Assembly: GCF_013122565.1 (NCBI RefSeq)
Contig: NZ_CP053258.1
Direction: 5' to 3' (one strand)
Length of the DNA: 64,000 nt
Source: Escherichia coli
GTDB lineage: Bacteria; Pseudomonadota; Gammaproteobacteria; Enterobacterales; Enterobacteriaceae
Position 1 is the stretch's first letter. The number at the start of each line of letters is the position of its first letter. Positions 4,659 to 35,790 of the stretch are shown here, piece after piece. The notes under the pieces are model-generated. The model was not told the origin of the DNA. It did not search any database and was given only the letters and a program-made list of their open reading frames with translations. The position numbers and the translations under genes were made by a program.

Positions 4659-5410
4659 GTTGTCACCCTGGACCTGGTCGTACATTTAAGAAATTAAATC
4701 ATTTCAACTTGGTTGTTAACGCAACCTGTATTTTGTTAACGCTGCGTTACGATGGAAAGTATGTCTGCGGAAATATTTTTAATAACTCACCCGCGCGTTG
4801 TATTTTTCTTTTTTTGTTCATACCAAAGTATTAAAAGCCACGTAAATACGCTGTTATCTACGCAAAAAATATTTTGTTTTCTTTTAAATCTCCGTTTCCG
4901 CTATCAAAAATCACCAGACAGTCATTCTTCTTGCCCGTCGCTGATTGCTGCGATATGTCTTGCGCACAAGCCGTGACAAACCTCGTCTTTTTGCAGTAAA
5001 AAATTGTCCACGGAGGTGTGGAGAAAAAACAACAACTTTTTACATGACGAAAGGACTACACCGAAATATTTTTTATATGCATTATTAGTAAGTTATCACC
5101 ATTTGTATGATTTTTTAAAATTGTGCAATAAAAACCAAATGTACAACTTTTCTATCATTTCTAAACTTAATAAAACCTTAAGGTTAACATTTTAATATAA
5201 CGAGTTACATTTAGTTACATGTTTAACACTTGATTTAAGATTTGTAATGGCTAGATTGAAATCAGATGTAATCCATTAGTTTTATATTTTACCCATTTAG
5301 GGCTGATTTATTACTACACACAGCAGTGCAACATCTGTCAGTACTTCTGGTGCTTCTATTTTAGAGGCAGCTGTCAGGTGTGCGATCAATAAAAAAAGCG
5401 GGGTTTCATC
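4659..5410. promoter_or_regulatory. Divergent csgB / csgD intergenic regulatory region
   Basis: ~750 bp AT-rich spacer between the divergent csgBAC and csgDEFG operons. From established knowledge this is a multi-regulator hub (OmpR, CpxR, IHF, H-NS, MlrA, RpoS). Confidence 0.85.
5204..5229 (+). promoter_or_regulatory. Probable OmpR-binding box of the csgD promoter
   Basis: Tandem GTTACAT repeats (gttacatttagttacatgtttaacac) about 180 bp upstream of the csgD ATG. Matches my recollection of the csgD OmpR site. Confidence 0.5.
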
Positions 5411-29577: not shown

Positions 29578-30399
29578 ATGTCACTCATTTGTTCTATTAA
29601 ATTCATTCAACATGAATTTAATGCATATATTTTAGATAACAACTACGCCTTCTCTGACGGTGAGGTTCTGATGGTAGATAGTGCTGTTAATTTATATTTT
29701 AAACCTTATGAACGATATTTCAAAGAAATCAAACTCAATGAAAAAATCATCAAAAGATACCTACAATACACTAACATTCAGATAGAGACAATGTCTGCTC
29801 CTACAAAGTTTTTACGTGTTTCTAATGTACCGACTGGATTGCTTAATGAAATGATTATTTATCTCAACTCGGAAGAAAATAATCATCATGATTTCTCTGA
29901 AGTTTTGCTTTTATCTTGCCTATCTATTTTTTCCGAATGCAAAGGTTTCATTACATTGCTTAATAACGGTGTATTATCCGTTTCCGGAAAAGTGAGGAAC
30001 ATTGTCAATATGAAGTTATCCCATTCATGGAAACTAAAAGACATTTGTGACTGCCTGTGCATGAGTGAAAGCTTGCTGAAGAAAAAACTAAAACAAGAGC
30101 AAACAACATTCTCACAGATTCTTTTAGATGCCAGAATGCAGCACGCTAATAAATTGATGCGGATAGAAGGCTCAGTCAATAAAATTGCCGAACAATGTGG
30201 TTATGCCAGTACATCTTATTTTATTTATACTTTCCGAAATTATTTCGGCAACAGTCCAAAGAGATTTTCTAAGGAAAAAGGTATCCACCCGCATAGCCAT
30301 CTTGCAGACTTCAGCGGTATTCTGCAGACGGATGCGAACGCTGGGTTCATGCCCGCAACAAGAACCATGGTGTGCATGTCCGCACGCCGTCGGCGCTGA
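29578..30399 (+). CDS. AraC/Rns-type regulator whose last ~35 codons derive from an IS66-family tnpC fragment
   Basis: AraC HTH region (ILLDARMQHANKLM...IAEQCGYASTSYFIYTFRNYFGNSPKRF). From ...HLADFSGILQTDANAGF onward the frame reads an IS66 tnpC motif. Confidence 0.7.
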   Translation: MSLICSIKFIQHEFNAYILDNNYAFSDGEVLMVDSAVNLYFKPYERYFKEIKLNEKIIKRYLQYTNIQIETMSAPTKFLRVSNVPTGLLNEMIIYLNSEENNHHDFSEVLLLSCLSIFSECKGFITLLNNGVLSVSGKVRNIVNMKLSHSWKLKDICDCLCMSESLLKKKLKQEQTTFSQILLDARMQHANKLMRIEGSVNKIAEQCGYASTSYFIYTFRNYFGNSPKRFSKEKGIHPHSHLADFSGILQTDANAGFMPATRTMVCMSARRRR

Positions 30400-30800
30400 C
30401 GGATGAAGCACTGAAAGGGGTCTGTGGGATGTATACCAACGAGTCGGAAATAAAGGGAATGCCGGCGGAGTAACGTCTTGCTGAATGTCAGCAGAAAGCG
30501 AAACTACTGCTGAAATCCTTGGAAAGCTGACTGCGTGAAAAGATGAAAACCCTGCCACGACACTCAGAACTGGCGAAAGCGCTCGTGTACTGGCGATACG
30601 AATGGAATGACGAGGCTGCCTGTCAGTCACAGGGAGCTTTTGGCACAAAATCAACGGAAAGGCCGCCAGCACTGGAATTAAGTTGTACTGTCCCCGTACT
30701 GGCAAGCCATACCCGGAACAACCTCACCGCAAACTGCGCCCGGGAGCAACCATTACAGCCTCTGCACTGGATTTGCAGCCCCGGCATCTTTCGGCGGTGC
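30290..30800 (+). pseudogene. Second IS66-family tnpC remnant
   Basis: DFSGILQTDANAGF, then (frame-shifted) VRTPSALTDEALKGVCGMYTNESEIKG, paralogous to the remnant at 22190-22400. Many stops. Confidence 0.55.
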
Positions 30801-30884
30801 CTCCTGCCGTTCTCCATCTCTGCTGTATACCCCAGCACTTCTGAGCCTCATAATCTTCGTCACACATCACACAAAACCACTTTC

Positions 30885-31148
30885 TCATTTCACCATATAA
30901 TCCGGAACCGTCATGCCCTGCAGATGCAAACGACGGGCCTCTTTCTCTACCATGTCAGGCCTGGTGCATCGCAGGAGGATTTTCTCAGCGACAGTTATCT
31001 GGTCATGCTCAAATCACGGCGGTTGTCCGTCATTGCCCCGCTTAAGTGTTAATGGATAACCACAGAACACGTAGCACATAACGTCCTGGCGGCTGTGCTT
31101 CGCGGCTTCTTTCGCTGTTACAAAATGACCTTTGCTGTCATTTGTCAT
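30885..31148 (-). pseudogene. 87-codon Cys-containing gene with an in-frame TGA (codon 45)
   Basis: Hand translation: MTNDSKGHFVTAKEAAKHSRQDVMCYVFCGYPLTLKRGNDGQPP*FEHDQITVAEKILLRCTRPDMVEKEARRLHLQGMTVPDYMVK. The stop is at 31014-31016. Confidence 0.45.
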
Positions 31149-31156
31149 ATAACAGT

Positions 31157-31650
31157 TCAGAATTCATATATTTCCTCCTGAGTTGTCCGGGGAATACTGC
31201 ATCCTCCGGTCTGGCAGTGTAGGCAGTACCGCTCCCCATAATAATCGTGGCGACATTGTCTGCAGTGCCAGCTGGCTTTACGCACCACGGGTAAGGCATT
31301 CGGTATCAATTGCTGTAAGCGTTTAATCAACTGTACTTTACTGCGTTCCGGTCTGACATGAGGGCACTCGTGACCATGCTCAGTCAGCCATTTGACGGTG
31401 TGTTCAAATCAGCGACGTTCAGTATCGTATTCCGGATGGTATTTGAGTGCACTAGCGCAAGGATGGCCGGTGTAGCGATCGCAAGGTGCGGTCTGTGCAG
31501 TACGGGCATCAATCAGACGATCATTCCCTTTGAAAGCGATAAAGTTTTTTGCGTATATAGTGTAGTTCCTTACCGCCAGACGACACGCAGACGTTAGCCG
31601 TCCCGCTACGGGTAGCGTGGTCAGGGTGTGAATGGCGGATTAGTGAAGTG
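31157..31650 (-). pseudogene. Cys-rich gene fragment with an in-frame TGA and no canonical start
   Basis: One frame reads ...NFIAFKGNDRLIDARTAQTAPCDRYTGHPCASALKYHPEYDTERR*FEHTVKWLTEHGHECPH...WHCRQCRHDYYGERYCLHCQTGG... The stop is at 31409-31411. Confidence 0.35.
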
Positions 31651-31916: not shown

Positions 31917-32510
31917 TCAGCAGATACGAGTAACACCGTTACCGCGCTGTCGTGGCCTGCCTCTGTTACTTTTCTCCGGTACCGTACTTCGCCCCACAAT
32001 AGCGCCATGCTCTTTCTGTTTAACTTTCGCTAGATAACTGATGGCATACCGAAGGTCATTCATTGCCGCGGTATCTGCATAGTGGATAACCTAGTCGATT
32101 CGGACCGGATAATTTTCTTTAGCACGGCACAGGTGGTGGTATCCGTCTCCTTCTGTTGCCCGTTCCCAGACATCTCCCATCAAACGGGAAAGCTGGTAAG
32201 GGTTCTGGTGATACTGGCCGTTCAGATAACCGAGTAGATGGATATGCAGACCTTTCTTCACTGTGTATTCCATCACCCAGTAATAACCGGCCATCGCGTT
32301 TTCTGTTTCGGTCAACAGGTGTAGTATTTCTGTACACATGGTGTGTTTACAGACATGCCCGAAACTGGCGGTATTTTTCCGGTAAGCGAAATCAATTCTG
32401 AAGGGTAACAGCTTAGCGAAACGCTGAAACATCGCTTCCATGTGGGCGTTGATGTCCTCCAGAATCTGACCATTCATTACGTAGTTAGGATTGGCGTTGT
32501 AAGGCTTCAT
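31917..32510 (-). pseudogene. YfjJ/YagK-like (inovirus Gp2-type) gene with an in-frame TAG
   Basis: MKPYNANPNYV...HIHLLGYLNG...VRID*VIHYADTAAMNDLRYAISYLAKVKQKEHG. The amber codon is at 32091-32093 and the same frame continues for 57 more codons. Confidence 0.6.
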
Positions 32511-32894
32511 TTGTCTTCCTCTTGTTGAGTCAGAGGAAGACGTTGTTACGTAATTTTTACACAGGCCGATTGACCTCACATTCACCTGTAGCTTCCCCTA
32601 GGGAACCAGCAACATGTACTACTCATGGCGAGACTGACGGATACCATTGATATGAGGAGAGCAGATTGTTATCAGATAAGGGGGATGGATCTGTCCTGTA
32701 TGATCTCAGCAGGCAGAACTGACAGCACGGGAGAGAGCAAGTAGCATACCAGGATAAGACAACATAACTATCACTACGTCACGATATAACTTCTGCAAAT
32801 AATACTAATTAACCTTAATTTATCTGTCTTGATCCCATCACGTAATGTCACGAACGGTGCAAAAGTGGCTCTTCCGCAACTTGGGTGGAGATTT

Positions 32895-34385
32895 TCATGC
32901 CAATGGACTCATTACCCTCTGCCTGAGTAGTTCAAATCCAGCTTGACCATACATCTGGCGTTTGAGCATCTTCAGGCGATTTACATGACTTTCGACAACA
33001 CCATTACTCCAGCGACTGCTGACTGCCTCACATATAGCCGCAGCATCGGCTTCCATCACCGCAGCCACGCGCCGAAGTTCTGCTGAATCGATTTCGTGGA
33101 CTCGAGTGAACCAGCTGCTTAGCCGTGATTTAGTTTGGGTTTTCAGAATACGGTAGAACTCTAGTGCCAGTTGATGCGCTATTTTCAGCTCCGGTTCTTT
33201 TTCACACATCAGACTAATAAATCGGGAAGCATAATTTTCTTCACCCCTGATTATTCTCCAGGGCATCAACCAGCGGCTTACCCGGTACACTGAAAGAAGT
33301 CTGGCAGCAGTAGTCACCAGCGGGATCCAGCCTTTACGCCATTTGGCAACAGCATCCCTGACGATGTTTTCACTGCCTGTAACCCCCCGGGTCACCATTT
33401 CCCGCATATCCGGCTGGCATTATAATTACCACTTTCTCATTGCTCTTTTAACCACTCCCTCCAAGGGTCCAGAAGTCCTCGCTTTGGAGGCCGGGTTGAC
33501 ATTTCAGGGAATGTTCCTGAACGCGCCCAGCGACTGACTGTCACTCGCGACAGGCCTGTAATACGGGATATTTCCCTGAAACTACATCCCTTGTTATGCA
33601 GGGCCATAACCTCTGTCCAACGCTGATGCCGTTTTTTGCGGATTTGCTGTTTAAGGCGTTCCGGACGACGGAGCGATGCTGCAGGCACAGACAGTTCTGG
33701 CTCAGGTGATTTCTTTGGTGACAACTCACTGGCAACAAGACGTATCAGATGCCTATGTCTGTACATCAATCGTTCAAGCGCATCGCCAATATTTTTTAGC
33801 AGATGCTATCGATCAGCCACCTGTCTGACCTGAGGTGCACCTTCACGTGCTGCTGTCGCATAGGTTCCACTGCGATCACGCGAGACAACCTGTATTTCCG
33901 GATATTTTCTGAACCAGGTCGCCAGCGTACGCTGATCGCGGTCGGGAAGCAGGACAGTGAGTATCAAGATTGACTATTAACGTACCGTAACGGTGGCCCC
34001 GATGCCACGCCCACTCATCAATACCGACATGGGGTGAGCCTGACAGTTTCGTCTCCGGGGTATTGATAACTCTGCGAAGAAGAGTATCTGCACTGCAACA
34101 GAGACCCACTGCCGTTGCTGCCCGTTTTCCAGCCTCACCTCCAGCTATTAATCCCAGTTGACGTTGTAAATTTTGTAACGCCTGTGAAGACTGCTGGTGT
34201 GAACCAGCGAAGGGAGTAAGCGACTCGGCAAAAATTTTACGTGAACAAGCTGGGTTACGGCAGTACCAGTGGCGGGCGGAAAATACAAGCCATAGCGTCT
34301 GCCCTGTGTTGAATATTGGCATGCAAAAAATTGGATTGCGCTCGCGCCCTTAATTACCCGGCGATGGGGAATAAGCTTCATCAGC
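32895..34385 (-). pseudogene. ISL3-family transposase gene, split over at least 3 frames
   Basis: N-terminal piece ...HWYCRNPACSRKIFAE...VGIDEWAWHRGHRYGT, a middle piece, and a C-terminal piece ...SNGVVESHVNRLKMLKRQMYGQAGFELLRQRV, in different frames. Confidence 0.7.
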
Positions 34386-34469
34386 CGTTGTCCCCGGGTG
34401 TAGCGTGCACAGTTGCATATCATTCTCAGACGAACCGATGGCTGGAGGGATGGTCGCCGCAGCCTGCCA

Positions 34470-35790
34470 TGAGACTGTAATTAAAATTGTGTAATTGCCT
34501 GTTTTTGATATGTTCACTCCAATAACGGAGACAGGCAAATTATGGACGAAAAGAAACTCAAAGCACTGGCGGCTGAACTGGCTAAGGACCTTAAAACCGA
34601 AGCCGACCTCAATCAGTTTTTCCGTATGCTGACGAAATTAGCCGTCGAAACAGCGCTCAATGCGGAGCTGACTGACCACCTCGGACATGAGAAAAATGCG
34701 CCAAAAACAGGTTCAAACACCCGCAATGGCTACTCGTCAAAAACGGTGTTATGCGATGATAGCGAGATCGAACTGAACACGCCGCGTGACCGTGAAAACA
34801 CCTTCGAGCCGCAGCTGATTAAGAAGCACCAGACGCGCATTACTCAGATGGACAGCAACATTTTATCCCTTTACGCCAAAGGCATGACTACCCGAGAAAT
34901 CGTCGCCACCTTCAAAGAAATGTCCGACGAAGATGTGTCACCCACGCTGATATCTAAGGTCACCGACGCGGTAAAAGAACAGGTTACTGAGTGGCAAAAC
35001 CGACAGCTGGATGCGCTGTATCCCATTGTTTACATGGACTGTATCGTCGTAAAAGTCCGTCAGAATGGGAGTGTGATAAACAAGGCCGTCTTCCTGGTGC
35101 TGGGGATCAATACCGAAGGCCAGAAAGAGTTGCTGGGCATGTGGCTGACCGAAAACGAAGGCGCAAAGTTCTGGCTGAGTGTGCTGACGGAGCTGAAAAA
35201 CCGTGGCCTCCAGGACATTCTTATAGCCTGTGTGGACGGTCTTAAGGGCTTCCCGGATGCGATAAACAGCGTCTTCCCGCAGCCCCATATCCAGCTGTGC
35301 AGCATCCATGTGGCGCGTAACAGCCTGAAATACGTGTCCAAGAAGGACTACAAAGCCGTCACCAGCGGCTTGAAGACTGTCTATCAGGTCCGGACCGAAG
35401 AGGCGGCACTGATGGCGCTCGATGCGTTCGCGGAAGTCTGGGACGATAAATATCCGCAAATCAGCAAAAGCTGGTATGCGCACTGGGAAAACCTCAATAC
35501 GCTCTTCAGTTATCCGCCGGATATCCGCAAGGCCATCTACACCACGAACGCAATCGAATCGCTTATCAGTATGATCCGAGCTGCGATTAAGAAACGCAAA
35601 GTGTTCCCGACGGATGACTCGGTACGAAAGGTTATTTATCTGGCGACCAAAGATGCGTCGAAAAAATAGAGTATGCCGATCCAGAACTGGCGGTTAGCAA
35701 TGAGCCGTTTTATTATCGAGTTCGGTGATCGCCTGAGCGATCACCTTTAATACATTGGCAGTTACACACAATTACTGACAGGCTCCCTGC
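34470..35790 (+). mobile_element. IS256-family (IS1414-like) insertion sequence
   Basis: Mutator-type transposase flanked by imperfect inverted ends (aattgtgtaattgcc at ~34485 versus ggcagttacacacaatt at ~35757). It abuts the 5' end of the ISL3 remnant. Confidence 0.7.
34542..35750 (+). pseudogene. IS256-family transposase with an in-frame TAG replacing the expected Trp codon 376
   Basis: 375 aa, then tag at 35667-35669; the same frame continues SMPIQNWRLAMSRFIIEFGDRLSDHL*. The recalled family consensus here is KKWSMPIQNW. Confidence 0.75.

Follow-up and report, generated by a model that had tools for sequence, protein, structure and literature searches.

Two adjacent genes on the minus strand of an Escherichia coli contig (NZ_CP053258.1) raise an unusual question. 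Each is interrupted by an in-frame TGA, and in each the TGA stands directly before the same Phe-Glu-His tripeptide. Is the stop codon decoded as an amino acid in these genes, did a single event place it in both, is the codon a preferred target of inactivation, or are the genes simply dead? The pair lies around positions 30,885 to 31,650 of a 64,000-nucleotide stretch of the contig, which is referred to below as the window. We consider it very probable that the upstream gene, here called A, and the downstream gene, here called B, are long-dead tandem paralogous pseudogenes that arose by ordinary decay and not by recoding. They sit downstream of a YagK/YfjJ gene on a CP4-57-like island remnant of a rare E. 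coli lineage, scarred by insertion sequences (IS). Their pseudogene status as such is already known from the RefSeq annotation of near-identical strains.

Gene A (gene 2 of a preliminary description of this DNA) occupies the minus strand at 31558..31157 and comprises 133 codons plus a natural TGA stop at 31157-31159. Gene B (gene 1 of that description) follows downstream on the same strand at about 31169..30780, its 3' end being approximate. Translation of the minus strand reproduced exactly the peptides that had been described for the two Cys-containing genes. Gene A reads ...CDRYTGHPCASALKYHPEYDTERR-TGA-TTT-GAA-CAC, with the interrupting TGA at 31409-31411, and gene B reads ...CYVFCGYPLTLKRGNDGQPP-TGA-TTT-GAG-CAT, with the TGA at 31014-31016. 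Past the stop, the frame stays open for 83 codons in A and 42 codons in B, in keeping with the 40 to 80 codons reported initially. When the two genes are aligned, their stops fall in one and the same column, that of the Trp of an invariant WFEH motif, and codon checks and DNA alignments place each TGA where a conserved Trp codon (TGG) is expected. With its stop read as Trp, A aligns end to end with the intact 133-residue protein WP_000270974.1. Intact B maps to window positions 31163-30786 by tblastn, and the usable ATG of gene B is at 31146-31148. The stops are not sequencing errors, since both are also present in three independent complete genomes and in the three draft contigs that were read. 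In addition, the B stop is implied on 47 draft contigs by an exact 44-residue truncated open reading frame (ORF), 9 of them carrying the window variant and 38 a sister variant, all named E. coli. A 30-residue partial sequence on an Enterobacter contig, the one further cluster member of this ORF, breaks off short of the stop site.

Both genes belong to a recognized family with two zinc ribbons. With the stop read as Trp, A matched the Pfam domain DUF7828 (PF25165; gathering cut-off of 25.7 bits) at E 2.4e-18 and 66.0 bits, and B matched it at E 6.2e-21 and 74.3 bits; in both cases the match runs across the stop. Intact homologues score 106-108 bits, and all 88 of the 88 aligned family members pass the cut-off. 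For the second domain, Zn_ribbon_11 (PF11682), we required 24 bits and the presence of a CxxC...CxxC arrangement. Repaired A belongs to it as well (E 2.3e-07, 30.8 bits). The domain is destroyed in window B, where the second CxxC has gone with a 17-nucleotide deletion, so that B consists of a DUF7828 N-terminal domain and a wrecked C-terminal ribbon; intact B scores 64.4 bits. A and B share the same layout, namely a CxxC knuckle, the invariant WFEH, a conserved Cys and a CxxC...CxxC ribbon, and are 25-30% identical in protein sequence. The view that they are diverged paralogues is thus confirmed by both identity and architecture. The intact proteins are named in RefSeq as 'putative zinc ribbon protein' (WP_000270974.1, 133 aa) and 'zinc-ribbon domain-containing protein' (WP_001221623.1, 135 aa).

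Further searches with the intact proteins were uninformative as to function. Neither intact A nor intact B had a significant match in NCBIfam, PADLOC or PHROGs. A sequence search of the PDB with the intact family gave just generic eL43-type zinc ribbons at E >= 0.17. When an AlphaFold2 model (predicted local distance difference test score, pLDDT, of 75; predicted template modelling score, pTM, of 0.47) was compared with the PDB by Foldseek, nothing better than E 0.4 was obtained, and the pieces that were returned resembled rubredoxin or MCM zinc knuckles, none of them significantly. Our literature search found no paper on DUF7828, and searches for YfjJ/YagK found nothing functional.

The question of what the stop codon replaced can be answered from the population. 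DNA similar to the 0.9-kb stretch that holds the two genes is found in 3,714 of 5,426 complete E. coli genomes, mostly at ~86% identity and at up to six places per genome. The intact copy has TGG at both sites, reading ...ELPWFEH and ...GQPPWFEH, so the earlier suggestion that TGA replaces a TGG (Trp) codon is correct. In the same 5,426 complete genomes and on the background of the common allele, the codon was counted with 55-nucleotide megablast queries that carry the variant base at position 28, so that every 28-nucleotide seed word contains it; as each seed word includes the variant base, only records with the exact allele can match. For gene B, TGG was found at 4,962 places in 3,385 genomes, and TGA gave no match. 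For gene A, 3,365 genomes had TGG, at 4,988 places in all, and two had TGA, AH62 and AH65. AH62 (NZ_CP055259.1; locus L006, 1379-1780) carries an independent TGG>TGA change at the Trp codon of A next to an intact B, and its gene A is annotated by the NCBI Prokaryotic Genome Annotation Pipeline (PGAP) as a pseudogene with an 'internal stop'. AH65 is NZ_CP058302.1; both strains are chicken isolates and probably represent one clone. The preliminary description had proposed tabulating TGG versus TGA in homologues, and had stated that TGG in nearly all genomes, with TGA only in this strain, would point to simple decay. TGG is indeed found nearly everywhere and TGA in the lineage of the window, and we accordingly read the stops as simple decay.

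The same preference for Trp is seen at the level of the protein family. Of the 120 best family clusters, 115 read WFEH, and 85 of the 88 aligned members (~97%) have Trp at this position, the exceptions being one Arg (P0008), one Cys (P0025) and one Tyr (P0113). These missense forms occur in A-type clusters, of which P0008 (W>R) has 1,707 members, P0025 (W>C) 1,631 and P0113 (W>Y) 88; the members of P0008 also lack the first knuckle Cys. Either the WFEH Trp is not strictly indispensable, or the W>R, W>C and W>Y alleles are decaying too. A pattern search of species-representative genomes ([NY]D[GT][QE][PLR][PR]WFE) is biased to TGG by its design, and the three loci that it gave were used as dN/dS references only.

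The allele of the window itself is rare. It was found in 3 of the 5,426 complete genomes, those of strains PapRG-06-5, A30 and JNE23-001, at 99.2% identity. The three are identical to one another at the locus and have both TGAs in common; the loci L007 and L008 are identical to the annotated locus L001 throughout. Both genes are pseudogenes in the PGAP annotation of these relatives, A with the remark 'internal stop' and B with 'frameshifted; internal stop'. Across the first 60 rows of the ranked matches, identity drops straight from 99.2% to 86.9%. Candidate intermediate alleles in the 90-95% identity band were considered and set aside, as the band consists of short partial matches (the listed example, H30, covers 53 bases). 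Among 5.8 billion clusters, repaired A had no intact match above 74-78% identity. The 64-kb window holds no second copy. A30 encodes a distant intact family member elsewhere on its chromosome (P0090, 130 aa, 37% identical to B), so that carrying the dead pair need not mean lacking the DUF7828 family altogether.

The two stops are far from being the only lesions, all of which are described here on the minus strand. In A, the start is lost, with ATA at 31556..31558 in place of the ATG of intact alleles, as seen in the DNA alignment and codon check (the family column is 91% Met). The first Cys of its CxxC knuckle has become Gly (GGC, 31466..31468; Cys in 98% of the family), and the conserved Pro before the Trp has become Arg (31412..31414; Pro in 99%). 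In B, the first Cys of the CxxC knuckle has become Tyr (TAC, 31071..31073; Cys in 98%), and the upstream equivalent of the start reads ATATGA instead of the ATGCGA of the intact allele (31164..31169). Two deletions shift the frame of B. The 17-nucleotide deletion, at 30833..30834 in the alignment to the intact locus L002, takes out the CPSC pair of the zinc ribbon at the C-terminus; it is common to L001 and the other two complete relatives. A 1-nucleotide deletion at 30888..30889, which gives a stop after ...DYMVK, is confined to the sub-lineage of the window, being found in the drafts L009-L011 and not in the three complete relatives. The window copies thus carry disabling mutations where intact 133-aa and 135-aa orthologues exist in thousands of genomes, as is expected of pseudogenes.

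The rates of substitution agree with loss of constraint in A. The ratio of nonsynonymous to synonymous substitution rates (dN/dS) between window A and intact L002 is 0.51, versus 0.14-0.18 for pairs of intact genes, and dN of window A is ~3x that of intact pairs at equal dS (0.157 vs 0.052). For B, dN/dS is 0.26, so relaxed selection is less clear for B alone. Between the window and its three close relatives, 4/4 coding substitutions are nonsynonymous. In addition, an IS21-family element of ~1.95 kb (istA/istB) lies inside A in a draft of the window sub-lineage, GCA_018578695.1 (L009, 923-2874), at a site equivalent to window positions of about 31268-31274; its flanks overlap by ~7 bp, consistent with a target duplication. 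The dN/dS of A, the uniformly nonsynonymous recent changes and the tolerated insertion together indicate relaxed selection. Decay of this family in E. coli also takes other forms. Internal deletions, frameshifts and fusions are present in other assemblies (P0151, P0153, P0154, P0140, P0143, P0009 and P0041), and the rearranged forms include a fusion of the B N-terminus to the A C-terminus, a fusion of the YagK N-terminus to the A C-terminus and frameshifted A-B read-throughs, which suggests frequent recombination and decay within the module.

Taken as decay, the course of events can be outlined as follows. Each gene would have been hit independently by a G>A change that turned the conserved WFEH Trp codon from TGG to TGA. 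Translation would then end at the TGA through release factor 2 (RF2) and leave a 44-residue fragment of B and, if A is translated at all, a 49-residue fragment of A. TGA works as a stop in gene A, given that the natural terminator of A is itself TGA. The double hit on a homologous codon would be a coincidence of ~1-4%, helped by the fact that TGG, unlike most codons, becomes a stop through a common transition. The homology, the descent of the stops from TGG, the rarity of TGA, the further lesions, the relaxed constraint and the lack of recoding signals are shown by the data. We infer that the two events were independent and neutral, and we place them relative to the other lesions with the same reservation.

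How unlikely is such a coincidence? Suppose that each gene, starting from its intact allele, acquired a single nonsense mutation. The two stops would then meet at the homologous codon with a probability of 0.010-0.025 at transition:transversion weights of 1-10, and of 0.04 under G:C>A:T changes alone. The double hit had been called a notable coincidence, and at P of about 0.01-0.04 it is unusual but not extreme, and it is a post-hoc observation in a pseudogene-rich genome. Its improbability is nonetheless one of several points that weigh against ordinary decay as the whole explanation. A third, independent TGG>TGA change has struck the same Trp codon of A in AH62/AH65. The WFEH codon was hit while three control nonsense paths were empty: censuses for A W97>TGA, B W98>TGA and A Q64>TAG gave zero matches each, which neither supports nor excludes a hotspot. 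Finally, one and the same knuckle Cys is lost in both copies. Taken together, these points allow a little scope for a hotspot or for selection on the motif.

The strongest competitor of ordinary decay, which we regard as unlikely, is that inactivation preferentially strikes the WFEH Trp codon, either because the codon is a local mutational hotspot or because selection favours knocking out the N-terminal knuckle/WFEH motif, for example if the proteins turn costly or toxic in a crippled island; the parallel hits would then not be pure chance. Apart from the three independent TGG>TGA changes at the homologous codon (window A, window B and A of AH62/AH65), the empty control paths and the Cys losses in the CxxC of both copies, it can draw on the missense changes at the same Trp in the large A-type clusters P0008, P0025 and P0113. 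The numbers, however, are tiny: one event was seen on the common allele background among five tested paths, two of which are Trp-before-FEH codons, and this has a chance probability of 0.4. Cys losses are to be expected at the 16-37% residue divergence of these regions, and the many other routes of decay show no preference for the Trp codon.

Two specific hotspot mechanisms were also considered and rejected. Deamination by Dcm, which acts at CCWGG, would give TAG at this site and not TGA. The intact A context, CCCTGG, does contain a Dcm site, for which TAG is expected, and the B context, CGTGG, contains none. The second mechanism is templated mutation at a quasi-palindrome. In A, the G>A change perfects a 6-bp inverted repeat, AUUUGA ... 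UCAAAU, with an 8-nucleotide spacer (31386-31409, minus strand), which is imperfect with the ancestral G. Such repeats cover 11-42% of neighbouring positions, the templating test was not significant and nothing comparable exists in B or in AH62.

A more speculative form of the same idea would make the WFEH Trp codon of DUF7828 genes a recurrent inactivation target at which TGG>TGA acts as a leaky, reversible 'dimmer'; we hold this to be improbable. If it were true, reading of the codon by Trp-tRNA at a few per cent would restore the wild-type residue, so that the change would be no clean knockout, and it might be favoured when island proteins are costly. The three TGG>TGA changes and the missense alleles of the Trp would then be its trace.

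Slightly less probable still is that the TGAs are tolerated or functional, with read-through by Trp-tRNA or insertion of selenocysteine restoring a low level of full-length protein, so that the genes would be attenuated and not dead. Read-through has some appeal, as UGA is read by Trp-tRNA(Trp) at ~2-4% in E. coli K-12 reporters (PMC10570021) and the Trp-tRNA would put the original residue back, and the frames are open beyond both stops. However, the stop is not conserved, TGA being present at 0/4,962 places for B and 2/4,990 for A. Read-through could not rescue B, which has two downstream frameshifts, nor A, where the ATG and a zinc ligand are gone. The elevated dN/dS and the IS21-family insertion tolerated in A of a sister strain speak against it as well. 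UGA followed by U is, moreover, not known as a leaky context. The tolerated read-through that had been raised as an option is thus contradicted by the further disabling lesions.

Selenocysteine had already been judged unlikely, and our searches bear this out. The homologues carry Trp at the site, and not Cys or selenocysteine. No selenocysteine insertion sequence (SECIS) was found with Rfam at permissive thresholds, the sole match being a weak one to a small nucleolar RNA (E 5.3) at the extreme 3' end of what is left of B, >120 nucleotides downstream of the B TGA. The 67-nucleotide folds downstream of the two TGAs had z-scores of -0.58 and -0.93 and were no better than shuffled sequences or the TGG alleles.

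The weakest explanation, to which we give next to no credence, is a single event behind both TGAs, in which gene conversion carried the stop from one paralogue to the other or a gene already interrupted by it was duplicated. A and B do share an identical TGATTTGA octamer at the site, but their protein identity is only 25-30%. Intact TGG orthologues number in the thousands for each, which excludes the duplication of an already-dead gene and places the duplication long before the stops. The shared run is too short for homologous recombination, and no conversion tract is visible. Around the site, A and B share 30/63 bases in the window versus 31/63 in the intact lineage, and their longest common run is 8 nucleotides versus 11. 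Given the ancient duplication and the lack of a conversion tract, the two G>A transitions were most probably independent, as ordinary decay of the two genes supposes.

The surroundings of the pair fit a decaying island. The window is collinear with the annotated locus L001 over 12.9 kb at 99.47% identity, and in the annotation of L001 the order on the minus strand is a helix-turn-helix regulator, a YfjI family protein, IS256, IS3 and ISL3 transposase pseudogenes, YagK/YfjJ, A, B, an IS66 fragment, a truncated ydeO and a fimbrial operon. With one neighbour annotated as a YfjI family protein and another as a YagK/YfjJ domain-containing protein, the CP4-type island setting proposed before is borne out, and it is CP4-57-like. 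The YagK/YfjJ gene of the module (inovirus Gp2 family) lies at 31917..32510 on the minus strand, as judged against the intact 197-aa L001 protein. It carries a nonsense change, CAG>TAG, at 32091-32093 (minus strand), which is specific to the window; the three complete genomes at 99% identity have the gene intact, and only one other public contig carries the truncated 139-aa product. With this premature stop beside the dead A and B, all three genes of the module are broken in the window. The nonsense change, the IS21-family insertion in A of the sister strain and the IS debris around the module show that decay is still going on.

On the far side of the pair, a truncated ydeO (~29578-30236) abuts an IS66 transposase fragment (~30240-30603), both within 29578..30603 on the plus strand, and the IS256, IS3 and ISL3 pseudogenes lie at ~32894-35750. 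These coordinates were transferred from the L001 annotation and are approximate. A 273-aa ORF of AraC type (29578-30399, plus strand) is the truncated ydeO running past the break point into the IS66 fragment. This structure implies that the island remnant is bounded by an IS-mediated truncation of a chromosomal regulator, beside the fimbrial operon. About two thirds of complete E. coli genomes carry the module of YagK/YfjJ, A and B (median 2, up to 6 places), which is also known from Salmonella, Citrobacter, Enterobacter, Serratia and Edwardsiella; it had no match in the library of anti-phage defence systems that was searched.

For annotation, the outcome is that both ORFs should be called DUF7828/Zn_ribbon_11 pseudogenes and should not be listed as recoding candidates, and the locus has little import beyond that. 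It may serve as a calibration case: where paralogues have a conserved TGG in common, chance can produce a striking double stop at the same codon, and counting TGG versus TGA across the population is a simple way to settle such a question. The intact YagK/YfjJ, A and B module could deserve study, to which the dead copies of the window add nothing.

Comparison with known systems places the pair more precisely. Selenoprotein genes (e.g., fdhF) and genes with programmed UGA read-through have, like the window genes, an in-frame UGA and an open frame beyond it. Unlike them, the window genes have no SECIS, their stop is unconserved, the homologues carry Trp and B is frameshifted downstream. A bacterial selenoprotein gene was thus rejected on the lack of a SECIS 3' of the UGA and on the Trp found in 85/88 homologues, and programmed stop-codon read-through on the unconserved stop and on the downstream frame of B, which is broken by two deletions.

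The N-terminus had also been likened to that of CoiA. The likeness of motif holds, weakly: CoiA_N (PF25164) shares with the family a Cys knuckle that is followed, some 15-20 residues on, by an aromatic-F-x-H motif, and 5/88 members, all of B type, have matches to it over residues 18-55. Membership in that family does not hold, as these matches reach 14.3-14.5 bits (best E 0.025) and the gathering cut-off is 26.3 bits; DUF7828 with Zn_ribbon_11 is the proper family. Neither A nor B gave a match to a CoiA nuclease-domain family, no nuclease family at all was matched in Pfam at E up to 10, and the PDB gave no significant fold match. A CoiA-like competence nuclease was therefore rejected. Unlike CoiA, intact A and B are only 133-135 aa long, and what remains after the N-terminal domain is a zinc ribbon.

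The closest known systems are the intact proteins with DUF7828 and Zn_ribbon_11, which have the same domain order and the same tandem arrangement of A and B downstream of YagK/YfjJ. Window A is 74% and window B ~85% identical in protein to the intact RefSeq proteins, at ~86% identity in DNA; unlike these, the window copies have TGA at the Trp, a lost start, lost Cys ligands and deletions. Closer still is the pair in PapRG-06-5, A30 and JNE23-001 (e.g., G3M73_RS05210 and G3M73_RS23350), which has the TGAs, the 17-nucleotide deletion and the flanking IS debris in common with the window, and from which the window has moved on by six more substitutions, the 1-nucleotide deletion in B and the nonsense change in YagK/YfjJ.

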